Of a stretch of DNA of 64,000 nt, positions 1-48,744 are shown one piece after another (the stretch's first letter is position 1; each line of letters starts with the position of its first letter). The DNA comes from Gemmatimonadota bacterium (GTDB lineage: Bacteria > Gemmatimonadota > Gemmatimonadetes > Gemmatimonadales > GWC2-71-9). The position numbers and the translations under genes were made by a program. Under the pieces are notes generated by a model. It was not told the DNA's origin. It searched no databases and saw only the letters and a list, made by a program, of their open reading frames with translations. The DNA is taken from NCBI GenBank assembly GCA_039586365.1, contig JBDHKN010000033.1, forward strand, positions 1 through 64,000. Reading direction: 5' to 3'.

Positions 1-84
1 CAAGCGCGGGTCGGTGACGACCCGTTCGATGTTCCCCCTCGTGAGATCGACTTCCAGGTTGAAACCTGTCTCTGCATATCTCAT
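1..84 (-). CDS. bamB: 5' end (28 codons, runs off window) of an aldehyde:ferredoxin oxidoreductase-family tungsten enzyme, BamB-like subunit of class II benzoyl-CoA reductase
   Basis: Manual translation from ATG at 84-82: MRYAETGFNLEVDLTRGNIERVVTDPRL. Closely matches the Geobacter metallireducens BamB N-terminus as I recall it (MRYAETGYVLEVDLTKGSIERVATDPR). Lies downstream of bcr/dch/had/oah. Confidence 0.8.
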   Translation of the reverse strand, partial: MRYAETGFNLEVDLTRGNIERVVTDPRL

Positions 85-114
85 TCGTCACTCGCTGCGT
101 CTTCGTTGGAGGTG

Positions 115-145
115 GAAGAGAAATACGCCGCCGCATGAGCCGGCG
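115..145 (-). terminator. Possible weak intrinsic terminator or attenuator before bamB
   Basis: Minus strand CGCCG-GCTCATGCGG-CGGCG followed by TATTTCTCTT; stem is only 5 bp. Confidence 0.25.
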
Positions 146-160
146 AACGGATTGCTCAGT

Positions 161-247
161 TCAAGCGTGTTTCCACGTCGGTTGTCGCTTCTCCAGGAAG
201 GAGTTGAGTCCCTCAAGAGCGTCGTCGTCCACCGCCATTGGCGTCAC
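161..247 (-). pseudogene. 28-codon remnant of an enoyl-CoA hydratase (Dch-like C-terminus)
   Basis: GTG at 247-245 overlaps the upstream TGA (GTGA). Translates [28 protein letters not shown]; compare the Dch C-terminus [24 protein letters not shown] near 4701-4775. Confidence 0.75.
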
Positions 248-555
248 TCTCTTTCCCTCTTCCGTGTGTAGATCGTCTGGAACTGGAGCAGCGCCACCAA
301 CTTGCAGTCCTCGCATTCATCACCCAGCTCGTGGGGTCCGAGCGCCCGGGTGCACACCTCGTAGCCGAGCTGCTCGTACAATTCCATGGCTTCACTGGCA
401 CGTTGCCTGTCAGCGACGAATCTTCGCTCCCAGCCGGCTGCGAGCAGTTCCGGATCAGCCTCGAGCTGCGTTTCAGATAGCAGCCGTCGTGCTTCCTGTT
501 CGACCACCGGGCCCATCCGCTCGGATATGTCGCGCTCGGATCCGCGGTTGCCCAT
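244..555 (-). CDS. Small hypothetical protein with CxxC motif, directly downstream of the reductase genes
   Basis: 103 aa; AGGAG RBS; 6 nt after the upstream stop; GWERRF and CEDC motifs. Confidence 0.7.
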   Translation of the reverse strand: MGNRGSERDISERMGPVVEQEARRLLSETQLEADPELLAAGWERRFVADRQRASEAMELYEQLGYEVCTRALGPHELGDECEDCKLVALLQFQTIYTRKRERE

Positions 556-561
556 ACTCCT

Positions 562-1383
562 CTAGACGCGGCCCAGCGCGGCACCGTCTCTGCTCAGCGT
601 GAGCAGCCGACGGTGCCCGAGTATTGCCGCTCCCAATGCCGCCGTGTACTGCACCAGATCGCCGGTTGGCACGTTTACCCCCGTCTTGAGTTCTTCACTC
701 ACCACGCGCACCATTGTCTCGAACCGCAGGATTCCACCTATCAGAGTGAACTCGGGTTCCATGCGCACTCGCTTCATCAGCTGTACGGACCTGCCCACGA
801 GGGACACTATCGCGCCATACATGATGTCGGCTGGGGCGACGCCTTCCGACAGATGGTTGATCACTTCCGATTCGGCGAACACGGCGCACACCCCTGAGAT
901 GGAACTGGCCTCCTTGGAAGTCGCCACGAGGGGACCGATCTCCGAGGTCGAATAGCCCATGTAGCGCGCCGTCTTCTCGAGGAACGCACCAGTACCGGCT
1001 GCGCACTTGTCGTTGAGGCGAAATGATTTGACCTTGGCGCCGTCGGTGAGGCGACTGGCCTTCATGGTCTGTCCGCCGACATCGAGAATAGTCCGGGTGT
1101 TGGGGAAGAAGTACGTCGCTCCTCGTGCACCCGCCGTCAGGTCGGTCACCTGGACGTCGCTGAAAGTGGCCTGGTGGCGGCCGATACCCGTCGCAACCAC
1201 ATAGGTCACGACGTCCGGGGACAGGCCCGCAGCGGCGACCGCCTTCTTGTACGTGTTGTCCGCGACTTCCGCCAACTTGAATCCAGTTGGCTCCATCGCG
1301 CGGCCTACGATCTCTTTGCCTTCGCTCAGGATGAGCGCCTTGGTATAGGTCGAGCCAATATCGATGCCGGCCGTGTAGGTCAT
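562..1383 (-). CDS. bcrD: Class I benzoyl-CoA reductase ATP-binding activator subunit (BcrD-like, ASKHA fold)
   Basis: [37 protein letters not shown] overlap with upstream gene. A versus D label follows gene order. Confidence 0.85.
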
Positions 1384-2198
1384 GACGCGTCACTCCGATC
1401 CTTGTGCGGTACTCGACTGGCGAAGATGTGATCGAGACCAAACAACGCCGCACCGAGTGCGCCCATGTAGTGCGACTCTTCACTCACGTTCACCTTGGTG
1501 CCAAGGCGCTCGTTGAGTGTGGCTATCATGGCGAGATTGCGAGCAACGCCCCCGGTGAACGTCACCTCGTCCTCAATGCCCACCCTACGTAACAGGCCGA
1601 CGGAGCGAGTGGCGATGGACTGATGCACGCCGAGCAGGATGTCTTCGATCTTCTTACCCTTGCCCAACCATGACAGCACCTCGGACTCGGCAAAGACAGT
1701 GCACGTCGTGCTGATCTTGACCGGTCTCTCTCCTTTCAACGCGGTAGGTCCTAGCTCTGCGAGCGGGATATCCAGAGCGCTGGAAGCGGCACCCAGAAAG
1801 CGTCCGGTCCCCGCAGCGCATTTGTCGTTCATGCAGAAGTCAACTATCTCTCCACTGCCGGAAACACGGATGGCCTTAGTGTCCTGGCCACCCATGTCGA
1901 CTACGGTCCGGGTGTCGGGGAACATGTGGACGGCACCGCGCCCGTGACAGGAGATCTCTGTCACCTGCGTGTTGCCGAACGTGACCTTGTAGCGACCGTA
2001 ACCCGTACCCACCACGTACTCGATCTCCTCTTCCCGCAGGTCTCCCGCATGCAGTGCTTCTTGGAATGCGTGCTCCGCGGCGCGCATGACGTTAGCGCCG
2101 GTCTCCGTCAGCGCCCGGGACACGATTTCCTTTTCCTCGTTGACGATCACGGCTTTGGTCTGAGTGGAGCCGACATCCACACCGGCTGCATAGGCCAT
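1380..2198 (-). CDS. bcrA: Class I benzoyl-CoA reductase ATP-binding activator subunit (short BcrA/BzdQ-like)
   Basis: [51 protein letters not shown]. Confidence 0.85.
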
Positions 2199-2220
2199 GA
2201 GTTCTCCTTTCCCTTACGGT

Positions 2221-3522
2221 CTATGCCAGGTCGACGGCAGCCCGGTGGCGCCGTGATGCCAATCCTTCGAAGAAGGCGTCCACCCGATTCTTTAGTTGTG
2301 CTTCCGACACTACTCGCTGGTCCATCAGGTCGGACTCTATGAACAGACTTGGGATATCCCGTGTCTCCAGCAGTTCCCGCCGGTTGTCTGCCAACCCGGT
2401 CGACACAGTGCGGCAACTCTTGATGGGGTGGTATACGATTCCATCCGCACTGTACTCGTCGATCATCTGCAATAGTGCGTTTGACTGGAAGAACATGCTG
2501 TCCATCGCGTCACGCACGCCTATCAGGACACCCTCCGCAAGACTCTCCAACGGATTCTCGAGATCGTATTGGTACCCCAGATTCGAGCCGCCCGACGCAA
2601 ACCACAGATAGGTTGAGTTTACGAAGGTGCCTCCCAGCTCGGTGAAGAACTCGTTGAAGCGGCGAAATATCGGGTAGCACGGCACTCCCACGAATATCAG
2701 GCGGTAGTGCTCGTCGGTCAGAGTGCCGATTCCGTTCGCGGCCTTGTATTCCATCTCTTCCACCAGGTCGGTGAAGTACCTGGCGCCGACCGGCGAACCC
2801 CTGAAGCCGTTGGCGACCCCGAGGTAGATGGTGCCATCGGACAGGGCGTTGAACAGAGACGGGCGGCTCTGGTTCAACTCGAGGAGTCGTTGCCACGCCT
2901 GGTTCATGGTGTTGGTGTGCGCCATCGCTTCCCGCAGCCTGGCCACATCGAACCGCTTGCCGGTTACCTGCTCCAGCAGGGCGATCAACTCCCGAATCTG
3001 AGCGGCAACATAGCGTCTATCGTTGTCGAAATCGGGATCGCCGGGCCATGTCTGGCCCCCCGCTTGGCGAGTTCCCGGCACATCCAGCGTGAAGGTGGGT
3101 ACGCCGTGCATCCGCTCCCAGATCTCTGCCCACTTGATGTAAGTGTTGCACGCGTTGGTGTAGACGGCGATGGCCGGTTTTGGTATCCGTCCCATTGGGA
3201 GTACACCCGCGCGCAGTTGGGTGGCCACGTCGGCTTTCACATAGCCACAGATGTCCGGCGAGTAGCCATAGTCTTCCGCTTCATTCAGGTACTCAAGGGC
3301 TACTCGGCGCACGGCGGTCTGCAGTGAGTTGATCTCTGGAAAGACAATCGGCAGGTCGAAGGTCCGTAGCAGCTCCGACATGCTGCCCATGACGAACACG
3401 TACGCTCCGCCCCTGCCCTGTTCCGCAGCCTCGGTGAGTCCCTCAAACCACGTTCGAAAGAGTTGGGCACCCTCCTTGTTGCCCCGGCCGACCATGGTCC
3501 CATCAATTTTCAGGTCTGTCAT
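2221..3522 (-). CDS. bcrB: Benzoyl-CoA reductase subunit B (2-hydroxyacyl-CoA dehydratase family)
   Basis: PEINSLQ...AEDYGYSPDICGYVKAD, NACNTYIKW, KSCR; resembles Thauera-type BcrB. Confidence 0.88.
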   Translation of the reverse strand: MTDLKIDGTMVGRGNKEGAQLFRTWFEGLTEAAEQGRGGAYVFVMGSMSELLRTFDLPIVFPEINSLQTAVRRVALEYLNEAEDYGYSPDICGYVKADVATQLRAGVLPMGRIPKPAIAVYTNACNTYIKWAEIWERMHGVPTFTLDVPGTRQAGGQTWPGDPDFDNDRRYVAAQIRELIALLEQVTGKRFDVARLREAMAHTNTMNQAWQRLLELNQSRPSLFNALSDGTIYLGVANGFRGSPVGARYFTDLVEEMEYKAANGIGTLTDEHYRLIFVGVPCYPIFRRFNEFFTELGGTFVNSTYLWFASGGSNLGYQYDLENPLESLAEGVLIGVRDAMDSMFFQSNALLQMIDEYSADGIVYHPIKSCRTVSTGLADNRRELLETRDIPSLFIESDLMDQRVVSEAQLKNRVDAFFEGLASRRHRAAVDLA

Positions 3523-3534
3523 CAGTCCTCTTTC

Positions 3535-4704
3535 TCAATCGAAGAGAATGTTCTCCACAAAGGTCTCCAGTTGGATCTCGAGCTGTTCGAAGCTCGTCAT
3601 GTTCTCCTCGAACTCGCTGACGAAATACGGCACATTTTCCCGGTCTAGGGCGCGCGTGTAGGCGACTTGCTCCTCCAATCCCGGTTCACACATCTTGGCA
3701 GCCGTGACGATCGCTGCCTGGGCCCGAGAATCTGCGATGCGCTGGAGCAGCATCTTCTCCTTGGGCTTACGCAGGTCGTGTTGCACCGGGCTGTAGGAGG
3801 ATTGTTCCAGGTAAGCTGCGGCCAGATTGAACAACGGGTCACCATCGACGGGCACGTCTTCCAGGATCCAGCGCAGTCCGATGAGCAGGTCGTCGTCCAC
3901 GACATAGCACGACCGGCCGATGGCCCGGATCAAGTCCAGCGGTGGCTGTTCGCAGAACCCGCCCTCGAATACCACACGTATCCTGTCCTGCCGCTTGGCT
4001 GGCCGCTGCTTGATCAAGGGCAAGACGGTATGGAGCAAAGCGTTGTGTTCTTCCCTGGTAACCAGGCCTCCCAGGGCTACCAGTACGTATGTCTCGTCCA
4101 AGGACACCAGCCACGGAGAATCGCGCTTGATGGTGTACAGCTCGCGCAGCAAAGCTCGGTTCTCGTTGAACACGCTCAGCGAGTGGCGCAGCTGGTCGTC
4201 GGTGATGCTGCAGTCGGCGATGTCCTCGATGCTGCGCCGCAGCCGATCGTACTCACCGCGGAGATACTCAAGCGCGTGCTGCGAGTTGGCGTTCTGGGGG
4301 AGGTATAGGATTTGACATGGGTAGCTGAAGTTCCGTCCCCACACGGCCGCCAGATTGCGCGCGGCGTCGCAGATCGGGTGCGTCACGAACATGTCCAATT
4401 CCACGCTGTTGGCCAGCACCAGCTCCAGTGATGTCTTGATGATAGAGCACAGGTAGGACCCAAAGCGGGAGTCTGCATTGGTCGCCTCTACAGGCGCCCC
4501 CCGGACCTTGAAGGGCAGTACGCCCGCGGCGTGCGCGATCTCCTCGGGAAAGTAGACCTGGAAATGGCCGACGATCTTCCCTCCCGCTTCGCGCCAGCGT
4601 CGCAGCGTCGGGAAGTTGGTGTCCTCCACGAGTTCCCGGCAGTGATAGAGAATCTCGTCGAGGGGTTTGCCCCGCCACTCGGGAAGAAGCCGGTCGTTGA
4701 TCAC
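3535..4704 (-). CDS. bcrC: Benzoyl-CoA reductase subunit C
   Basis: [49 protein letters not shown] align with Thauera BcrC. Start placed at GTG 4704 (GTGA overlap with dch stop). Confidence 0.88.
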
Positions 4705-5459
4705 CGATGCTTCCACTCAGGTTGCCGTTTCTCCAGGAACGAACTGAGTCCCTCCAAAGCGTCCTCCGTCGCCATCAGGTCGTCGACGTAGACCTTCCCT
4801 GCCGCCGACATCGCGGCGGTTCTCGTGACGGCCGTAGCGGCTCGCAGGGTACGCTTGGCAATTCGTAGAGCGGCACTGCTGTGTCGTGCGATGCGGTTGG
4901 CGACTTCGAGTGCGTAGTCGTTCAATTGGTCTTCAGGCACTACCTGCCACACTATCCCCGCCGCTGCTGCCTGCGCGGCACTGAGTGGATCTCCGGTGAA
5001 CACGATCTCGGACGCGACACCGCGCGAACAGATACTGGGCAGTAGTGCCACTGCTGCTGGGGGAATCACGCCCAGCAATATCTCCGGTTGTCCGAACTTG
5101 GCGCCCTCGCTCGCGACGACGAGATCCACTGCCTGGATCAACTCGAACCCACCTCCCAGGCAACGGCCCTGAACAGTTGCGATGACGGGCACAGGAAACG
5201 CGTCGATTGCTGCGACGGTGTCGAGGAATTCAGGGATCATCTCCCGGTAGTGAGGCGGCAGATGCTCGCCTACATCAGCCCCCGCCGAGAAGTGCTTGCC
5301 TTCGGAACTGAGCAGGAGTACCCGCAGGGATTGGTCGCCCTGGAGACTCTCCAGTTCGCGGCGCAGCGCCGCCATTACATCTCTGGTGAGAATGTTGAGC
5401 GGAGGATTGCACATCCTAACACGGCCAATACCGTCTGCGACGGCGACTTCGATCGTCAT
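4701..5459 (-). CDS. dch: Cyclohexa-1,5-diene-1-carbonyl-CoA hydratase (crotonase family)
   Basis: [35 protein letters not shown]; adjacent to bcrC. Confidence 0.85.
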
Positions 5460-5521: not shown

Positions 5522-5974
5522 TCACCAAGTGCGCTCCACCTGCGACCAGGTCGTGCCGGGCTGCTCCAGGCTATAGTAGACCTTGATGTCTTCCACCTCT
5601 TCGAAGATGCGGGGCACCACCTGAAGCTCCATCCCGATCTCGATAGCCTTCTCTGGCACGCTGTCCCCGAACCAGGCAAGCGCACGGCCACCCTCGGCGA
5701 GATCCACCACCCCCACGATGTAGGGGACCTCGTCCTCGAAGCCCGTGGGTGCAGCCACGATCTTGGTGAACGTGTTGAGTGTGGCTTTGCCGCTGACTTC
5801 ATAGAACTCGAAGTCACCGCTGGTGCACGCCTCGCAGTCAGCTCGTGGTGGAAAGGAGGTCGCACCGCACTTCTTGCAGCGCGAGCCCATGAGGTGCCCA
5901 TCCCTCAAGTAACGGGCGAAATCGCTGACCTTCGTGTACGGCGTGAAATTGACCTTCCCAAACCACTCGAACAT
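5522..5974 (-). CDS. DUF35 Zn-ribbon/OB-fold protein (thiolase partner)
   Basis: CKKC...PPRADCEAC Zn ribbon followed by OB-fold; directly downstream of the thiolase. Confidence 0.9.
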   Translation of the reverse strand: MFEWFGKVNFTPYTKVSDFARYLRDGHLMGSRCKKCGATSFPPRADCEACTSGDFEFYEVSGKATLNTFTKIVAAPTGFEDEVPYIVGVVDLAEGGRALAWFGDSVPEKAIEIGMELQVVPRIFEEVEDIKVYYSLEQPGTTWSQVERTW

Positions 5975-5977
5975 CGA

Positions 5978-7132
5978 TCAATCCCTCTTCAAGACTTGAA
6001 CGAAACAATACTGACCGATGCCGCCGACATTGTGTGTCAGGCCGACATCGGCGTCGGGAACTTGGCGTTCTCCCGCCTCGCCGCGCAGTTGCTTGGCGAT
6101 CTCGTACGTCATCGAAACACCGGTTGCGCCGATCGGGTGACCCTTGGCCTTCAGACCGCCATCAACGTTGACGGCTACCTTGCCTCCGATGTAGGACTGG
6201 CGCTCTGCGATGAACGGTCCTCCTGCTCCCTTCTTGCAGAACCCGAGATCCTCGTATGCCATTATCTCGGCGACCGTGAAGCAGTCGTGCACATCCGCTA
6301 CTTTGACGTCTTCCGGTCCGATTCCCGCCATTGCGTAGGCGTCGGCCGCTGCCTTCTCTGCGCTGGGTAGACCTGTGAGACTGGGTCGTCTCAGCACCGA
6401 CATGCTGGCGGTCGCGCATGCCATCCCGTCCAACCAGACCGTATGCTGAGTTATCTCCCTGGCACGCGCTTCAGTTGCCAGGATCACACAGGCAGCACCG
6501 TCTGCGTTTGCGCAGCAGTCGTACACTTGGAACGGCGTCGCGACCTCTTCGGATGCGGTGGCCTTCTCCAGGGTGATCTCTTTTCTGAACAGAGCGTTGG
6601 GGTTCTTGGCGCCATAGAAGTGGTTCTTCACAGCGACCTGCAATAGCTGCTCGCGAGTCGTGCCGTACTCATGCATGTGGCGTTTGGCGAACATCGCGTA
6701 GTAGCCGGGGAACGTGGTTCCGAACCCGGACTCCCATTGCACTTCACCCACTCTGCCCATCAGTGCGAGGATCTCGGCCGTAGACATCTCGGTCATCTTC
6801 TGGCAACCGATGACAGCCACGACATCGTGAAGGCCGGCCTTGATCGACATCCAGGCGGTACGAATGGCTGCACTGCCCGACGCACAGGCGACCTCAGTGA
6901 GCCAAGTCGGCTTCGGCACGAGCCCAAGGTACTCTTGCACGACACCCGCGAGGGACCGCTGCTTGTGGTACTCGGGAACTGCACCGATGACCGATGCGTC
7001 AATGGCAGCCCGATCGATACCCGCATCGTCCAGCGCATCTCGGAAGGCTTCGAATGCCAGTTCTTGCACAGTGGCATCGCTGCGACGGCCGAAAACACCG
7101 TGTCCTACTCCAACGATTCCGACTCTAGTCAT
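5978..7132 (-). CDS. Thiolase, SCP-x/archaeal-type acetyl-CoA C-acyltransferase
   Basis: EVACASGS (catalytic Cys), VHDCFT, GGLKAKGHPIGATG, HNVGG. Confidence 0.92.
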   Translation of the reverse strand: MTRVGIVGVGHGVFGRRSDATVQELAFEAFRDALDDAGIDRAAIDASVIGAVPEYHKQRSLAGVVQEYLGLVPKPTWLTEVACASGSAAIRTAWMSIKAGLHDVVAVIGCQKMTEMSTAEILALMGRVGEVQWESGFGTTFPGYYAMFAKRHMHEYGTTREQLLQVAVKNHFYGAKNPNALFRKEITLEKATASEEVATPFQVYDCCANADGAACVILATEARAREITQHTVWLDGMACATASMSVLRRPSLTGLPSAEKAAADAYAMAGIGPEDVKVADVHDCFTVAEIMAYEDLGFCKKGAGGPFIAERQSYIGGKVAVNVDGGLKAKGHPIGATGVSMTYEIAKQLRGEAGERQVPDADVGLTHNVGGIGQYCFVQVLKRD

Positions 7133-7149
7133 AGTCCTCTCACGGACGG

Positions 7150-7899
7150 CTACATGTACTGTCCGCCGTCGATCTTGATTGTCTCACCTGTGATATGGCG
7201 TGCTCGATCGGAACAGAGAAAAGCGACCAGATCGGCGCACTCTTCCGCTGTCGCAAATCGGCCCAGCACCGTTTCGCTCATTGCCTTGGTCAGGAACTCA
7301 GGGGGGATGTTTCGGGCCATGTCGGTCATGACCATTCCGGGAGCAACCACGTTGACGTTCACGTTGAACTTGCCCAGCTCCCGGGCCAGTGACTTGCTCA
7401 GCGCTATCTCCCCACCCTTGGAGGCGGCGTAATTGGTTTGGGCAAACTTGCCCCGCAATCCGTTGATCGAGGAAATGTTGACGATCTTGCCGCTCTTCTG
7501 GTCCTTGAAGACTATGGCGGCGGCTTTGTTGTAGTTGAAGTAGCCTTTCAAATTCACATTGATCACGGTGTCCCACTGTTCTTCCGTCATCTTCCAGATC
7601 ACGCCGTCCCAGTTGATACCGGCGTTGCACACCATGATGTCCAGACTGCCGAACTGCTCGACAACAGAGCGTACCATGTTCTGGGCGTCGTCGTAGCTAC
7701 TCACGTCCGCCTTTATCGCCAGCCCGCGGCGACCCAACTTCTCAACTTCTCGGATCACCTGTTTCGCTTCGGTGTCATGCCGCCGATAGTTGATGGCTAC
7801 GTTGCAGCCTTCCTTTGCCAGCGTCACGGCGATGGCAGAGCCTATGCCGAGGCTACCTCCCGTAACGATGGCGTTCTTGCCTTCCAATCCTAGGTCCAT
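7150..7899 (-). CDS. Short-chain dehydrogenase (FabG-like; candidate 3-hydroxypimeloyl-CoA dehydrogenase)
   Basis: TGGSLGIG, NAG, YAASK motifs; substrate inferred from context only. Confidence 0.85.
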   Translation of the reverse strand: MDLGLEGKNAIVTGGSLGIGSAIAVTLAKEGCNVAINYRRHDTEAKQVIREVEKLGRRGLAIKADVSSYDDAQNMVRSVVEQFGSLDIMVCNAGINWDGVIWKMTEEQWDTVINVNLKGYFNYNKAAAIVFKDQKSGKIVNISSINGLRGKFAQTNYAASKGGEIALSKSLARELGKFNVNVNVVAPGMVMTDMARNIPPEFLTKAMSETVLGRFATAEECADLVAFLCSDRARHITGETIKIDGGQYM

Positions 7900-8057: not shown

Positions 8058-9149
8058 TCAAGTTTCTTGATACTGTGGCGAGATTGCCCGTATCAGCTCG
8101 TCATCCCAGGGATGTCCCTGTGCGAGTAGCTGGCGCAGCTTGATGAAATCGACTTCCCGTTTGTCCTTGGGACCCTCGTTGAATGCCCGAAAACCGGCCT
8201 TGGCTTCGGTCATCATATTGAGTGCAAGCCATTCACGGTTCGTGACGTTGGTGTTGTCCCAGTGCCACTGCTTGTGCTTGCGGAGACCGTTCACTGTCTT
8301 GGACACACAGTCCGGCATCAGCATCAGAATCTTGGTGCATAGAGCTTCCACAGCCTCGTCCAGCTTGCTGAGATCTGTCTCCGCTTTTGCCAAGATCTCC
8401 TTAGCCGCGTTCCTCTCGGCACCCACCTTGAAGTCCCCGTAGACGATGTTGCCGAACTCGTCGACAAACCGATCGGTGATGACCATCGGGTTGGGAATCC
8501 ACTTGCCGTCTACCTTGAGGACCGGTACGATCTGGTTCAACAGACCAATGAACAAGGCCTTGTGGGCGCTCCACATATCGCAGAGGATTCCGCTCTCCAT
8601 CGCACGGGAGAACCCGACATAGAGCGGTAGAAAGTCGGTGGAGCCACCGTCGGGTGCCGATCCGTGTTTGGGTCCAGCCTGTCCAAAGCGAGCGGTGTCG
8701 GCGGCTACGGAGAAATCGCAGGCCATCCCGATCTCCTGACCGCCTGCTATGCGCATGCCGTTGACACGATTGATGACCGGTTTGTCGCACCGCAGGATGG
8801 AATCGATCATGTCATTGAACAGTCGCATGTATTGCTTGTACTCCTGCGGGTTGCCCGCATAGTACTCGGCGTACTCCTTGGTGTTTCCGCCCGTACAGAA
8901 TGCCTTGTCACCGACAGCCGTGAAGACACATGCGACCACACTGCGATCCATGCTGGCCTGTCGGAACGCAAGGATCACCTCCTTGACCGCGTCTGTGGTG
9001 TAGCTGTTGAACTGTTTTGGGTTGTCCAGGGTTATCCACGCATTGTGCAGACCGTCCACCGGGTTGCCCGCCGGGTTGAGGACGGGACGAAGCTCATACT
9101 GGATCTCTGTGAATTTCAGATCGTCGACGAGGGTGTGACTATTCAGCAT
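8058..9149 (-). CDS. oah: 6-oxocyclohex-1-ene-1-carbonyl-CoA hydrolase (Oah/BamA, Thauera/Geobacter-type)
   Basis: LDNPKQFNSYTT, AFCTGGNTKEYAEYYAGNPQEY, NGMRIAGGQEIG, GQAGPKHGSAP signatures. Confidence 0.96.
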   Translation of the reverse strand: MLNSHTLVDDLKFTEIQYELRPVLNPAGNPVDGLHNAWITLDNPKQFNSYTTDAVKEVILAFRQASMDRSVVACVFTAVGDKAFCTGGNTKEYAEYYAGNPQEYKQYMRLFNDMIDSILRCDKPVINRVNGMRIAGGQEIGMACDFSVAADTARFGQAGPKHGSAPDGGSTDFLPLYVGFSRAMESGILCDMWSAHKALFIGLLNQIVPVLKVDGKWIPNPMVITDRFVDEFGNIVYGDFKVGAERNAAKEILAKAETDLSKLDEAVEALCTKILMLMPDCVSKTVNGLRKHKQWHWDNTNVTNREWLALNMMTEAKAGFRAFNEGPKDKREVDFIKLRQLLAQGHPWDDELIRAISPQYQET

Positions 9150-9191: not shown

Positions 9192-10247
9192 TCACGAAAC
9201 CCAATCCGGAACCAGGACGGCGCGTTTGTCGATTTGATGATCGGCGACCTGCTGCATGACATCAGGTCCATCGCTCATCGGGTAGGTCTTGATAAAGGGC
9301 TTCAAGTTCACCTTGCCACTTGTCACCAGCTGCAGCGCTTCCGGATACAGTTCCGGCTTACAGCCCCATGTTCCCTGTACTGTGGCATCGAAGGCCATGA
9401 GATTACTCAGGCGCACTTCGATCTTTTCCAGAGTAAAACCAACAACCATCAGCGTCGCCGCGAAGGTGAGCAACCCATACGCAGTGTCCTGCCCGCGAGG
9501 TTGACCGGAGCACTCAAAGATCTTCCAACTGTGCGCGGCGGTGCCCCATTTCTTGGTCTGGGCCTTGATCTGGTTCTTGGTTGCCTTGAAATCGGTCGTC
9601 GAGGAGTTGATCGTGAGAGCCGCTCCGTGGCTGGCCACCGCGGCGAGCTTTGCGTCATCTACGTCAATCGCCACCACATGAGCACCTGACGCTGCAGCGA
9701 TTTGCACGCAGTATGTTCCGACACCTCCCACCCCAACCACGATCGCGAGGTCTCCCGGACGTAGACCGCTGCGGACGATGGCCTGATAGGGTGTAGTGAC
9801 CGCATCGGCGATGACCGAGAGTTCCTCCAGGTCGTAGCCGCCACGGTCCTCCACGACGCACAGGCCGCGGCCCGGTGCGAGGATAAACTCCGCAAAGCCG
9901 CCATCGATGTCGTTGCCCGGCATCAGCTGCGCGCGGCAGACGTTGCCTCGGCCCTCTTTGCACAAGACGCATTCACCACAGGGAATCACGGCCGGGACGA
10001 TGACCTCGCGGTTCAGCAGGTGCTGATAGTTGGACCCTGCCTCCACGACAATGCCGCTGACCTCGTGCCCCAGGGTGAGCGGGAGTTGTTTCTTGGTGGG
10101 AACACCATCCTTCCAGAACCCGATATCCGTGTGGCATACACCACATCCGGCGACACGCACTGTCACCTCGTCCTCCCCCGGCTCGGGCTTGGGGACGTCC
10201 TGGATGTTCAGCGGCTCTCCTACCGCTGTCAGCTGGATTGCCTTCAT
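9192..10247 (-). CDS. had: 6-hydroxycyclohex-1-ene-1-carbonyl-CoA dehydrogenase (Zn alcohol dehydrogenase family)
   Basis: GCGVCHTD, LGHE, PCGECVLC...C, MPGND, ADAVTTPYQA, RLSNLMAFDA; start placed at ATG 10247. Confidence 0.93.
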   Translation of the reverse strand: MKAIQLTAVGEPLNIQDVPKPEPGEDEVTVRVAGCGVCHTDIGFWKDGVPTKKQLPLTLGHEVSGIVVEAGSNYQHLLNREVIVPAVIPCGECVLCKEGRGNVCRAQLMPGNDIDGGFAEFILAPGRGLCVVEDRGGYDLEELSVIADAVTTPYQAIVRSGLRPGDLAIVVGVGGVGTYCVQIAAASGAHVVAIDVDDAKLAAVASHGAALTINSSTTDFKATKNQIKAQTKKWGTAAHSWKIFECSGQPRGQDTAYGLLTFAATLMVVGFTLEKIEVRLSNLMAFDATVQGTWGCKPELYPEALQLVTSGKVNLKPFIKTYPMSDGPDVMQQVADHQIDKRAVLVPDWVS

Positions 10248-10329
10248 GACGCACACTCTCTGGCGTAGGGTACTTTCAGCAGTGCGAACTCTCCAGACGT
10301 TGCTGCTCCTCGTGGTCCCATCGCCATAG

Positions 10330-10947
10330 TTACCGACACATCAACCCCCCAACCAAATGGCTGGCAAACTCAGTCCCCAACTCGGGGGCTTGGAGTGATC
10401 CTTCTGGTCGGTACCAGCGGGCGATCCAGTTTATGGCGCCGAGTATGGCGAACACGGCGATCTTGGAATTCACCGGCCGAAACTCACCGTTCTTGATACC
10501 TTCGTCGATGATCTTGCGTAGTTCCCGCTCGTAGCGGTCGCGGGCCGCGATAACCTCTTGCTGGCGTTCGGTCGACAACGCCGTTACCTCGAACGCCAAC
10601 GGCGATCCCTCGAGTGTGTCCGTCATGACGCGAACGTGCTCACGGATCACGTGTGTCAGGCGCTCCGACGCAGTATCGAGCTTGCGGGCCTCTTTCGTCA
10701 GCCGTACGATCTCGTTGAGTGACTCGCGGTGACACTCGTAGAGAATGGCTTCCTTGTCGGGGAAGTAGTGGTAGAGAGCAGTCTTACGAACACCCACATG
10801 TTCGGCAATGTCGTCCAACGTGGTGGTGTGATAACCACGCTCACGGAAAGCTCGCAGCGCCGCGTGGAGGATCTCAGCCCGCCGGCGGCGGTGCTTCTCT
10901 CTGACATGCGGTGATGCGTTCGTCGCAATACGACCAGGTGGCATCAC
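10330..10947 (-). CDS. TetR/AcrR regulator (KstR2/PaaR-like C-terminus), first gene of the benzoyl-CoA cluster
   Basis: HTH TTLDDIAEHVGVRKTALYHYFPDKE; C-terminal GAINWIARWYRPEG. Confidence 0.9.
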   Translation of the reverse strand: MMPPGRIATNASPHVREKHRRRRAEILHAALRAFRERGYHTTTLDDIAEHVGVRKTALYHYFPDKEAILYECHRESLNEIVRLTKEARKLDTASERLTHVIREHVRVMTDTLEGSPLAFEVTALSTERQQEVIAARDRYERELRKIIDEGIKNGEFRPVNSKIAVFAILGAINWIARWYRPEGSLQAPELGTEFASHLVGGLMCR

Positions 10948-44390: not shown

Positions 44391-47300
44391 TTGTCTGACG
44401 GGATGAATCGGAGGCGGTTTCTCAAGGTACTCGGTGTGACTGGCGGGGGTGCAACCGCCCTCACGGGGTGCTCTACTGATAGGGTCGAGAAGCTCATTCC
44501 CTACTTGGTTCCTCCCGAGAACGAGATCCCTGGCCTGGCTACCTACTACGCCTCTACTTGCCGCGAGTGTCCGGCGGGATGCGGGCTCCATGTCCGAGTT
44601 CGCGAAGGCAGGGCGGTAAAGGTCGAGGGCAATCCGAGCAATCCCATCAATCAAGGCAGGCTCTGCGCGCGTGGCCAGGCCTCGCTACAAGGACTCTACA
44701 ATCCCGATCGCGTTCGGGGCCCTATGGCCCGCGTGGCAGGTGGTGGTTTCGAGCCGATCTCGTGGGAAGCTGCACTGACACGGATCGCCGAGCAGCTTGC
44801 CACGTTGCCCAGCGATGAGGTGTGGTTTGTCACCGGACAAGAGGCTGGTTCTTTTGATGCGCTGGTCTCGGAGTGGTTGGATGCGATCGGCAGCAGCCAT
44901 CGAGTCGTGCACGAGCCGTTCGCGTACGAGGCTTTGCGACAGGCCAACCGGACAGTCTTCGAGCTCGATTCCATTCCACAGTATGACTTTGCTGCGGCGC
45001 GCTACCTGGTGTCGTTTGGGGCTGACTTCTTGGAGACGTGGCTGAGCCCCGTGGAGCAGAGTCTGCTATCAAGGTGGTGAGATGGGCCGCTACGTGCATA
45101 TCGAGCCCCGGATGAGCATGACGGCGATGAGTGCCGACGAGTGGATCGCCCCGGTTCCTGGCACCGAGGGCTTGCTGGCTCTGGCCATGGCACACGTGAT
45201 CGTGCGAGATCAGCTCGCCGACGTGCCGACCGATGCTTCGCGAGTCGGCTCTGTTTGGGCAGAGCATACGCCCGCTGCCGTGTCCGCCCAAACGGGCGTG
45301 GCGGCCGACGTCATAGAGCGTTTGGCCCGCGAGTTCACCCAGCATGCGAGCTTGGCTGTTGCCGGAGGTGTCGGCACCCAGCATGCTGGTGCCGACTCCA
45401 CCGCAGCTGCCGTGAACTTGCTGAACTACGTCGCCGGGAACGTTGGTCGCACGGTGGCGTTCCATGCCGCTCAGAGTTCAGCTACCCAGGGAGGCTACTC
45501 AGGCACCGTAGACTTAGTGGAGGCCATGAGATCGGGTCGGGTTGGCGCATTGTTCATCCACGGCGCCAATCCAGTCCACACGTCACCCGCGGGACTGGGG
45601 CTCACGACAGCACTGGCGAATGTGGTGTTGAAGGTGAGTTTTGCCAGGTTCTTCGACGAGACGGCAGTGGAGGCTGATCTCGTGCTGCCGGATCACGATC
45701 CGCTCGAGCAGTGGAATGATTTCGAGGCGCGCCCCGGGGTGCACACGTTGCAGCAGCCGGCCATGCGTCCCGTGTTCGACACGCGGCAGACGGGAGACGT
45801 GCTGCTATCGCTGGCTCGGCAGCTGGACGAGCGAGTGACCGGGACGTTAGCTGCCAACGACTACAAAGAGTATGTGGCGGGTAGGTGGCAGGCGCTGCAG
45901 CGTCGAATCCGTGACCAACGTCCCTTTGAGGCGTTCTGGAACGAGGCGCTGCAACGGGGTGGGATTTGGGTCGCTGAACCGACTCGACAGGTGCGGTTGG
46001 CTGCGAGCGCTGGCAGTGTGAGGGCTGACGCCTGGTCGGCCCCTGCGGGTGATCAGCTCACCCTAATAGCCTATCCGTCGCCCGCGCTCTTTGACGGGCG
46101 CGGCGCCAACAGGCCGTGGCTGCAAGAGCTGCCCGACCCGGTGACCAAGGTCGCTTGGAGCAGCTGGATCGAGATCAATCCCGCGACCGCAAGCCGGCTC
46201 GGAATTGCTGAGGGTGAGTTCATTGAGGTCACATCCGAGCACGGATCCGTCACTGTGCCGGCCTACCCCTATCCAGGTATCCGCGAGGATACCGTGGCGA
46301 TTCCAATTGGACAGGGGCATGCTGCGTTTGGTCGTTACGCTGAGAACCGCGGCGTAAATGTGTACGGTCTGTTGCCTGCTAGCGCCACAGGATTCGGTGC
46401 GGTTGAGCACTATGTTGCGGTGACGCTACGGAACACGAAGGACTACGAGCGGATAGCCAAAACGGAAGGCAACAGCCGGCAGATGGGTCGTGGCATCGCT
46501 CAGGCAACGACACTGCAGGCACTCGCCCATCCGGAGGAGCATCAGGAGGAACACGGTGATCACGCTGCACCGGTCCCGGACCACATCGAGGAGATAATCG
46601 ACGAGTGGCAGGAGGACCAATACCGCGAGTGGATGCAGCGCGGTAATTATGCGCGTGAAGACCTACCGCGTTGGGCGATGGCCGTTGATCTATCCAAGTG
46701 CACAGGGTGCAGCGCCTGTGTAACGGCGTGCTACGCCGAGAACAACATCCCGACCGTGGGGCCGGATCTGATCCGTCGCGGCCGAGAGATGTCGTGGATA
46801 CGCATAGAGCGATACTTCGAGGATGGTGCACACGGCGAGATCGAGTCGCGCTTCCTCCCGATGATCTGTCAGCACTGCACTAATGCGCCTTGTGAACCGG
46901 TCTGCCCGGTGTTTGCTGCATATCACACGCCGGACGGGCTCAACGCACAGGTCTACAACCGTTGTGTGGGCACCAGATATTGCTCTAACAACTGCCCTTA
47001 CAAAGTGCGCTACTTCAACTGGTTCGATCATCAAAACGAGGCTGATGCGGCGTATGCGTGGCCCGATCCGTTGCACTGGCTGCTGAACCCGGATGTGACT
47101 GTCAGGGTCAAGGGTGTGATGGAGAAGTGCACCTTCTGTGTGCAGCGCATTCGAGACAAACAGCATCAATCGAAGCTGAGTGGTGATCCGCTGGTGGACG
47201 GCGATGTGGTGACTGCATGTCAGCAGACGTGCCCCGCCGATGCAATCGTGTTCGGCGACATCAATGACCCCGCTTCGAGGATCAGTCAGCTTGCCGGAGA

Positions 47301-47394
47301 CAATCGGGGGTACCACGTGCTCGAGGGTCTCAACACTAGGCCAGCAGTAACGTATCTGAAGAAGGTGCGGAACGTAGCGGAGGGAGAGGCCTAG
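44391..47394 (+). CDS. actB: Alternative Complex III subunit B (molybdopterin-oxidoreductase-like plus Fe-S domain), split by a frameshift near 45060-45066
   Basis: Tat RRRFLK, KLIPYL, KVEGNP, WLQELPDP, CTGCSACVTAC, CQHCTNAPCEPVCP, CVGTRYCSNNCPY, MEKCTFC; the two ORFs are in different frames. Confidence 0.88.
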
Positions 47395-48744
47395 ATGGCG
47401 ACGATCGTGCAGCCGCTGCAAGAGAAGTTGCCTACTTACAACGAGGTGACGCGCGATGTCGCGGCGACGCTCGGTCGTCCCAAGAGGGGCTACTATGTCC
47501 TGCTCGGGATCGTGTTGGTTGTTCTGGTGTTCGGCTTCAGCGCGCTCCTCTATCAGATCAGGCTGGGTCTCGGTGTTGCCGGATATACCCCGCCGGTGTT
47601 GTGGGGTGTATACATCACGACGTTCGTGTTCTGGGTCGGGATTGCGCACTCCGGTACGCTCATCTCGGCGATCCTATATCTGTTCAGGTCGACCTGGCGT
47701 ACTTCGGTCTACCGTACCGCCGAGGCGATGACGGTCTTCGCCGTGATGACAGCGGGGTTGTTCCCGCTGATTCACGTCGGACGGATCTGGTATGCCTACT
47801 GGCTATTCCCCTATCCGAACCAGCGTCAGCTCTGGGTCAACTTCAAATCACCGCTGGTGTGGGACGTTTTCGCCGTGTCGACATATTTCACGGTGAGCAC
47901 GGCGTTCCTGATTGTGGGGTTGATTCCCGACCTCGCTGCGATACGCGACCTGTCCACCGGCTGGCGCAAGAAGCTGTATCGCATAACGGCTCTGAGTTGG
48001 CAGGGGACCGACCAGCAGTGGCGTCACTATACGCGAGCCTATCTCTACCTGGCGGCTCTGGCGACACCCCTCGTTCTCTCGGTGCACAGCGTGGTGTCTT
48101 GGGACTTCGCGATGTCGATAGTCCCAGGTTGGCATGCCACCATCTTCGCACCGTATTTCGTGGCCGGCGCGATCTACTCCGGTGTGGCGATGGTGGTGAC
48201 CCTGCTGGTACCGCTCCGCAAGATCTTCAAGGTCGAACGCTACATCACGGCGCGCCATTTCGACAACCTGGCCAAACTGCTGCTGCTGACGGGGCTGATT
48301 GTTGGCTACGCCTATGGCGTTGAGTACTTCATGGCTTGGTATAGTGGCAATCAGTTCGAGCGGGCTTCCTTCTGGAATCGGGCGTTTGGCGAATACTGGT
48401 GGGCGACCTGGACAATGATCCTGTGCAACGGGGTGTTGCCAGTGTTCCTGTTCTTCAAGAAGATCAGGCGCAGCATTCCAGCCCTGTTCGTGCTTTCGCT
48501 GTTTGTTAATCTCGGCATGTGGTTTGAGCGTTTCGTGATCATCGTTGTGTCGTTGTCGTTCGAGTACGAACCATACGCCATGGGTCACTACACGCCGTCT
48601 TGGGTCGAGTGGGCGATCCTCCTGGGCAGTTTTGCCTGGTTCTTCATGTGGTTCTTGCTGTTCGCCAAGAACTTCCCGACGGTTTCCATCACCGAGGTGA
48701 AGGAGATCACCCCAATGCCACGGAAGAGACCGGTGCAAGCATGA
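47395..48744 (+). CDS. actC: Alternative Complex III quinol-binding subunit (NrfD family)
   Basis: FVFWVGIAHSGTLISAIL, HVGR, SPLVWD, LSVHSVVSWDFA. Confidence 0.95.
   Translation: MATIVQPLQEKLPTYNEVTRDVAATLGRPKRGYYVLLGIVLVVLVFGFSALLYQIRLGLGVAGYTPPVLWGVYITTFVFWVGIAHSGTLISAILYLFRSTWRTSVYRTAEAMTVFAVMTAGLFPLIHVGRIWYAYWLFPYPNQRQLWVNFKSPLVWDVFAVSTYFTVSTAFLIVGLIPDLAAIRDLSTGWRKKLYRITALSWQGTDQQWRHYTRAYLYLAALATPLVLSVHSVVSWDFAMSIVPGWHATIFAPYFVAGAIYSGVAMVVTLLVPLRKIFKVERYITARHFDNLAKLLLLTGLIVGYAYGVEYFMAWYSGNQFERASFWNRAFGEYWWATWTMILCNGVLPVFLFFKKIRRSIPALFVLSLFVNLGMWFERFVIIVVSLSFEYEPYAMGHYTPSWVEWAILLGSFAWFFMWFLLFAKNFPTVSITEVKEITPMPRKRPVQA

Follow-up and report, generated by a model that had tools for sequence, protein, structure and literature searches.

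We analyzed a 64,000-nucleotide (nt) stretch of DNA from an uncultured Gemmatimonadota bacterium of sediment (GenBank assembly GCA_039586365.1, contig JBDHKN010000033.1, positions 1 to 64,000 of the forward strand), which we call the window. On its minus strand, the window encodes an intact class I benzoyl-CoA reductase, followed at the contig end by the start of bamB, a gene of the tungsten-containing class II benzoyl-CoA reductase. As a rule, class I is assigned to facultative anaerobes with ample energy, and class II to strict anaerobes that live on little. The explanation that we favor, with a probability of roughly 0.55, is that a gained bamBCDEF module, headed by this bamB, is displacing a native and still intact class I enzyme within the genus. 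We refer to the window's own metagenome-assembled genome (MAG; 86% complete) as G000 and to the contig that ends at window position 1 as C57. Its relatives in the genus are G007, G006 (93% complete), G003 (94%), and G001 (74%).

The frame at the contig end (window 84..1, minus strand) translates to 28 residues and remains open to the last letter. Its sole significant match in PDB is BamB from Geobacter metallireducens (4Z3W; E = 2.2e-8, 22/27 identical), and over these 28 residues it agrees with the beginning of BamB from G007 at 96% identity. The ATG (84) is 478 bp beyond the stop of bcrD (562) and on the same strand. The initial annotation, which was made from the window's letters, had proposed a BamB N-terminus less than 500 bp behind bcrD and co-oriented with it; the translation, the PDB match, and the spacing bear this out. 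The full gene should encode about 650 amino acids, and the open codons before a contig end or gap number 28 in G000, 43 in G006, 222 in metagenome contig L160, 460 in G007, and 543 in metagenome contig L163.

The longer sequences allow BamB to be distinguished from other members of the AOR family. BamB from G007 scores 800 bits against 4Z3W, versus at most 193 bits against AOR, WOR, or FOR proteins. In a quick tree (SH-aLRT support, root drawn arbitrarily), the BamB sequences of the genus group with the BamB rows and apart from the genus's own generic AORs. The scores and the tree position rule out a generic AOR, which the initial annotation had named as the alternative. Also, G007 retains Glu251, His255, Glu257, His260, and the tungsten ligand Cys322, which are the active-site residues named in the accessible text of PMC12096430. 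These residues are present in L163 and in loci L093 and L062 as well; in G000 these positions fall past the contig end. Both active-site motifs occur as written in 78 of the 87 rows of the tree; of the exceptions, five are generic AORs, one is a short row, and three are BamB sequences whose first motif is a variant. Over its 28 codons, bamB from G000 differs from its relatives by one amino-acid change and many silent ones. In the G007 lineage, dN/dS is about 0.11 for bamB and about 0.04–0.08 for the bcr genes, which indicates purifying selection on both halves.

The class I cluster lies on one strand in the order tetR-had-oah-sdr-thiolase-OB-dch-bcrCBAD, followed by an open reading frame (ORF) of 103 amino acids (Table 1). 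Each of the four reductase subunits pairs with a different subunit of the 3-methylbenzoyl-CoA reductase (MbdO, N, Q, or P), with large margins over the HAD dehydratases and Bzd. BcrB and BcrC each have three aligned motifs with cluster-binding cysteines, each ATPase subunit has two, and there are zero internal stops. All four subunits score below the NCBIfam cut-offs for the Bcr of Thauera and for Bzd (TIGR02259-63 and TIGR03190-92). Because of the PDB matches to MbdONPQ, and because the scores are below the Thauera and Bzd cut-offs, we classify the class I enzyme of the window, on sequence grounds, as MBR-type, which is one of three class I types in the accessible text of PMC11971306. Among the linked ring-opening genes, had and oah score above cut-off; the best family for dch is as expected, but the score is under the cut-off. 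The earlier proposal that bamB and the class I genes, which are intact, belong to one cluster with a single dch/had/oah set also stands, and this arrangement recurs in G007 and in metagenome contigs L159–L162.

To retrieve further examples, we used a 26-nt pattern across the bamB start, which gave six metagenome contigs (L158–L163). All six carry benzoate-cluster DNA upstream: L159–L162 have class I cluster genes, and in L158 and L163 the leader of bamB is immediately preceded by a complete dch. L161 and L162, from two assemblies, have one junction in common and are 98.7% alike over 1750 nt. Because the bcr parts of L159, L160, and L161 are just 88–90% alike, these contigs appear to represent different species or distant strains; their leaders are 99–100% alike. 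Among the genomes, G007 has the same gene order as the window from oah to the 103-amino-acid ORF and then 460 open codons of bamB. On this evidence the linkage is real for the genus and probably real for this genome, with the exact join of this assembly unconfirmed.

We also surveyed bamB more broadly. Of 558 confirmed candidates for relatives of the G007 bamB, the best 80, led by Gemmatimonadota records, were taken as loci, and MBR-type class I genes were within 10 kb of bamB in 2 of these 80. Fifty of the 80 genomes were searched whole: five carry an MBR-type class I enzyme at 65% or above, three of them on stretches without bamB. Locus L093, from genome G446, has a second and unrelated arrangement, with had-oah-dch-tetR-bamBCDEF and then bcrCBAD on a 218-kb contig from a dsrA-positive genome. 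Its bcrD has a frameshift near codon 42–49, which could be either an error or decay. The synteny of bcr and bamB, for which the initial annotation had suggested a survey, is found in G007 and L159–L162, and the two classes are linked in another order in L093/G446. Loci L083 and L112 have activase- or dehydratase-like genes near bamB at 30–38%, and these were not counted as class I.

Between the 103-amino-acid ORF and bamB, the window contains the end of a second dch and a leader that ends in the tail of a tetR gene; the initial annotation had described neither this ORF nor the dch and tetR remnants. The overlap of the tetR stop with the bamB start and the C-terminal TetR residues are alike in loci L058, L066, and L099. 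Because of the dch and tetR scraps before bamB, we consider the bam part likely to be a later graft from tetR-bamBCDEF loci of related Gemmatimonadota. The join between the bam-side segment and class I DNA is 139 nt before the ATG in G000, 93 in L159, 90 in G006, 57 in L161/L162, and 23 in G007, so the start codon is always spared, and the junctions show microhomology of about 3–16 nt. No shift in composition was seen at the junction, over the 223 nt on the bam side. The gene that follows the 103-amino-acid ORF in G003 was absent from the search of G000, so this native neighbor is of no use for testing the join.

No promoter-like site was found in window positions 1–700. The initial annotation had suggested that a weak hairpin (115-145) might separate the transcripts. 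The hairpin (146..128) is at chance level, with 1 terminator-like site versus 0.4 +/- 0.6 in shuffled sequences and a folding z of -0.87, and we rejected it as a terminator. The leader had only a chance snoRNA match in Rfam (E = 1.1) and 0 matches in viral contigs. It is near-identical across species, and the bamB alleles are mosaic; recent recombination or a function for the leader may account for this. Separately, L159–L162 and L035 (8310-8350) contain the start of a second bcrC/bzdN-like gene after the 103-amino-acid ORF, cut at different lengths of about 12 to 190 codons. L160 has three successive short-repeat jumps. Either serial deletion or template switching may have produced these patterns.

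All three states are found among the relatives. G003 and G001 have class I only: bcr is followed by an unrelated gene, and BamB was not found. G000 and G007 have both. In G006, dch and about 20 codons of bcrC are followed by the same leader and bamB, and neither BcrA nor BcrB was found in this 93% complete genome. Across a phylum sample of 401 genomes, MBR-type class I is present in 66 genomes at 61% identity or above (79 matches, of which 13 at 34–37% were dropped), BamB is present in 4, and both classes are present in 0. Because class I is so much more widespread, and none of these genomes has both, we infer that bam is the newcomer and that class I is native. In a family sample of 401 genomes, tetR-bamB was found in five genomes of one sister genus, and the bamB allele of L160 clusters with tetR-bamBCDEF loci (SH-aLRT 99 in the quick tree).

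Because bamC–F were not seen in the genus, the downstream module is predicted from other genera. In related Gemmatimonadota the loci read bamBCDEF; their bamF has an in-frame TGA at its selenocysteine position and encodes a C-terminal 4Fe-4S domain. In these loci bamG or bamH follows bamF in 0/5 cases, versus 21/39 of the others (the query's own locus included). The best BamH-like matches in five genomes are at 43–58%, versus 62–77% for most adjacent BamH. The initial annotation had also raised a reduced BamBC module, which is not supported: the related loci lack only the adjacent bamGHI. In the accessible text of 10.64898/2026.04.10.717634, BamGHI is the NADH/ferredoxin input of the G. metallireducens complex, and ETF is the high-potential acceptor. 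Because the short form lacks adjacent BamGHI, it would have to take in electrons in another way. The absence of bamGHI makes a canonical eight-subunit complex less likely, but it leaves the prediction that the enzyme works like class II. This short layout, in which bamF is of the selenocysteine type and fused to a 4Fe-4S domain and bamGHI are not adjacent, is seen in L058, L062, L065, L068, and L093, and short bamBCDEF loci also occur in several Planctomycetota and Myxococcota.

For the supply of selenocysteine and metallopterin, G000 itself contains selA (above cut-off), tRNA-Sec, molybdenum cofactor synthesis domains, and ModA. Elsewhere in this genome (G000:C14:1-17000), a split HdrA with a NuoE/F-like-GltD fusion, MvhD, a NiFe hydrogenase, and formate dehydrogenase-like genes make up a candidate module for electron bifurcation, with an identity of about 50% to BamH/BamE.

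G000 is a candidate facultative sulfate reducer. The genes aprB, aprA, sat, and dsrC, M, K, O, P, A, and B are above cut-off, and there are Qmo-like genes (QmoC is just under cut-off), a DsrL-like gene, NapA, and subunit I of both aa3-type and cbb3-type oxidases. A near-complete apr-qmo-sat-dsr cluster lies at G000:C97:36591-58399. Sulfate reduction is likely, and the accessible text of PMC5573963 describes a Gemmatimonadetes bin with a gene set for it. In the phylum more broadly, dsrA is above cut-off in 15 of 16 bamB-bearing Gemmatimonadota (the 16th has dsrB) versus 8/401 genomes of the phylum sample, in a comparison of kin genomes that are not independent and of two sets that are unequal in completeness. 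Of three further genomes in this comparison, one was positive and two were negative.

These observations can be assembled into a scenario of displacement. The module would have been gained horizontally from a tetR-bamBCDEF relative and would have lost its own regulator, tetR. Deletions between short repeats could then have trimmed duplicate genes or removed bcr. With tetR lost, no promoter-like site, and a hairpin at chance level, transcription from the class I operon would run on into bamB. Both reductases would deliver the same dienoyl-CoA to a single Dch/Had/Oah set. The ATP-free enzyme might be favored under sulfur respiration with its low ATP yield. This would make bcr dispensable, so that it was deleted in some lineages, while both enzymes were kept for long in others.

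A number of results weigh against this scenario. We found no bridge over 223/224 among the contigs listed from four public runs, on whose assembled contigs we tested the join; run X1 has two pieces, 1-223 and 225-457, with unaligned letters at their facing ends. The junctions all differ except for L161/L162, and most are 85–225 nt from a contig end. These results could be explained by a chimeric join, which the initial annotation had named (between 84 and 250) as a refutation, with the 223 nt on the bam side coming from a co-occurring relative with dch-leader-bamB. The window's own join lies 223 nt inside the contig, the remainder of bam is unbinned, and several metagenome contigs have serial microhomology jumps. 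We nevertheless consider a chimera improbable: the shared sequence at the junctions is shorter than assembly words, the partners are benzoate-cluster genes in 6/6 contigs, one junction is repeated in two assemblies, and the reading frames of G007 and L160 continue well beyond the join. The linkage in the genus stands even if the join in G000 is wrong. Similarly, our searches of G000 found no AFOR_N or AFOR_C match for the remainder of bamB, no other AOR-family sequence, and no contig that overlaps the C57 end. Of the accessory genes proposed in the initial annotation, those for selenocysteine and ModA were found in G000 (above), but no orthologs of BamC, D, E, or F and no TupA-family tungstate binder. 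Across the genus, BamC and an ortholog of BamE were found in 0/5 genomes. None of these genomes is complete, and in those with bam the contig stops within bamB. If the module had been gained and then lost downstream, the 28 codons in G000 would be a dead stub. We give this little credence, as no stop interrupts the frame before the contig ends, runs X1 and X4 have contigs that extend beyond window position 1 by 116 and 80 letters, and the changes in the 28 codons are nearly all silent. Also, G446, which has the whole module, is without a clear TupA too (its best match reads as a phosphate-binding protein).

Other points against displacement concern physiology. DsrD was not confirmed by Pfam, NCBIfam, or PDB, and a small ORF is assigned to it solely from its place between dsrB and dsrL; because of this, the direction of the dsr pathway is presumed. 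No benzoate-CoA ligase was above cut-off in any of five genomes. Class I alone is present in three dsrA-bearing Gemmatimonadota (G079, G086, and G326), which shows that the change need not follow from sulfur respiration. The tie between class II and dsrA is an association only. Finally, purifying selection on bcr fits a stable dual system as well. Since purifying selection acts on both parts in the G007 lineage, a dual state can be long-lived, and a regulated switch is still a contender. The initial annotation had proposed a switch by energy state or tungsten supply, or a split by substrate. In such a system, the MBR-type enzyme might serve during growth with nitrate or act on meta-substituted benzoyl-CoAs, and sulfate reduction would call on the tungsten enzyme. 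G000 has the respiratory breadth for a switch (dsr, NapA, and both oxidases), and switching between sulfate and oxygen is shown for an acidobacterium in the accessible text of PMC10564751. The bcr genes are intact, retain all cluster cysteines, and evolve under purifying selection in bam-linked lineages, the unrelated arrangement in L093/G446 is dsrA-positive, and 5/50 bamB genomes carry both classes. On the other hand, the donor tetR is just a tail, so with no promoter-like site there is no visible separate control, and the frameshift in bcrD of G446 may be decay or an error. Because one of the two classes is gone from some relatives, displacement fits better than a fixed dual design, and we think that a stable, selected dual system is unlikely. 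We would put forward only tentatively the idea that a facultative sulfur-respiring host runs the MBR-type enzyme and a short tungsten/selenium BamBCDEF, without NADH/ferredoxin input, from one operon and uses one or the other according to its electron acceptor. A hybrid enzyme whose BamBC part receives electrons from the two class I ATPases seems very improbable. It would account for the position of bamB after the ATPase genes and for the lack of adjacent bamGHI in the nearest bam loci (0/5), but the ATPases have their own intact partners in BcrBC, the nearest bam loci retain BamDEF with a ferredoxin-like domain on BamF, and G006, L158, and L163 keep bamB without the ATPases.

Table 1. Features of the class I cluster, the gap, and the bamB start in the window.
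Feature	Position	Strand	Basis or remark
TetR-family regulator, cluster head	10330..10947	-	same place in G006 and family relatives
Had dehydrogenase	9192..10256	-	TIGR03201 above cut-off
Oah ring-opening hydrolase	8058..9149	-	TIGR03200 above cut-off
OB-fold protein, thiolase, short-chain dehydrogenase (lower pathway)	5522..7899	-	family profile search
Dch-like enoyl-CoA hydratase	4701..5459	-	best NCBIfam TIGR03189, 187 bits, under cut-off of 292.5
BcrC/MbdN-type subunit	3535..4716	-	MbdN 9G87_B, E 1.6e-162; GTG at 4704 is a possible start
BcrB/MbdO-type catalytic subunit	2221..3522	-	MbdO 9G87_A, E 1.2e-154; next match 8e-30
BcrA/MbdQ-type ATPase subunit	1380..2198	-	MbdQ 9GAI_D, E 9.2e-124
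BcrD/MbdP-type ATPase subunit	562..1383	-	MbdP 9GAI_C, E 1.1e-93
103-amino-acid ORF, CxxC motif	244..555	-	nearly always behind bcrD; no Pfam or NCBIfam family; unnamed Atlas clusters
Junction of native class I DNA and bam-side segment	223..224		short microhomology; 139 nt before ATG shared
Second dch remnant, last 20 codons and stop	161..223	-	continuous with longer dch piece in L160 and whole dch in L158
Leader, 76 nt	85..160	-	95-99% common to G006, L158-L160, L163
Donor tetR 3' tail	81..118	-	21/21 nt identical to L058 tetR end; stop overlaps bamB start
bamB start	1..84	-	only 28 codons on contig C57; PDB match 4Z3W

Several other features of these clusters are worth describing. The intact dch of the window is 63% identical to dch from G007 and G003 and 72% identical to the bam-linked dch of L158, while its neighbors are at 76–93%; this dch may itself have been replaced from the donor. 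The 103-amino-acid protein was found behind bcrD in nearly every MBR-type cluster that we saw (39–63% identity; homologs in L035–L050 and L149–L157), and it is a possible accessory factor of MBR-type reductases. In the class I clusters of family relatives L040, L042, L043, and L044, the gene for this protein is followed by genes that read as isopropylmalate dehydrogenase- or synthase-like. One genome (G032) has two copies of bcrB, on C1 and C3, with identical scores. Far from the cluster, at window positions 44709-48744 (plus strand), molybdopterin/FeS and NrfD genes resemble alternative complex III; the molybdopterin-type gene was matched in two pieces, 44709-45038 and 45094-45816.

The enzymes are known; what is new is the arrangement, with a readable series of gain and loss. 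The rule that links class I and class II to energy rests on comparisons of distant organisms, and in this case a single genus seems to show class I only, both classes, and class II only at the same locus. The readable traces of gain and deletion, together with the tie of class II to dsrA within the phylum, make the energetic explanation testable among close relatives. If the dual operon is true, the genus offers natural strains with class I only, both classes, or class II only for studying energy metabolism. These results also add Gemmatimonadota to the carriers of class II, and they caution against relying on bamB and bcrC as markers to tell sediment guilds cleanly apart. In a literature search that mostly covered sources other than subscription journals and excluded supplements (such as MAG tables), we encountered no description of a co-oriented cluster with both classes and none of bamB in Gemmatimonadota. 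Further context is in the accessible text of PMC5736913, 10.1101/2023.07.10.548433, and PMC10591310.

Among known systems, the class I half is most like MbdONPQ (PDB 9G87 and 9GAI), as all four subunits are matched and the cluster cysteines are kept. In contrast to MbdONPQ, which is from a denitrifying Thauera, the window is from a dsr-bearing Gemmatimonadota host, and its cluster continues with a conserved 103-amino-acid gene and bamB. The class II half resembles the Bam[(BC)2DEFGHI]2 complex of G. metallireducens (PDB 4Z3W-4Z40) in the N-terminus of BamB in the window, in the full active-site set of G007 and relatives, and in the BamC, D, E, and TGA-containing bamF of related Gemmatimonadota loci. 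It differs in that the window's bamB lies behind a class I operon in a host with oxidases and NapA, the nearest loci are without adjacent bamGHI and have a BamF with a C-terminal 4Fe-4S domain, and bamC–I were not seen in G000. As for the combination, the accessible texts of earlier reports describe both classes in the genome of Desulfotomaculum gibsoniae (PMC4148979), across MAGs of Desulfatiglandales (PMC10570749), and in two mangrove MAGs of Desulfobacterota (PMC11704145). Like these, the window's host has genes of both classes; in the earlier reports they occur within a single genome or a single order of sulfate reducers.

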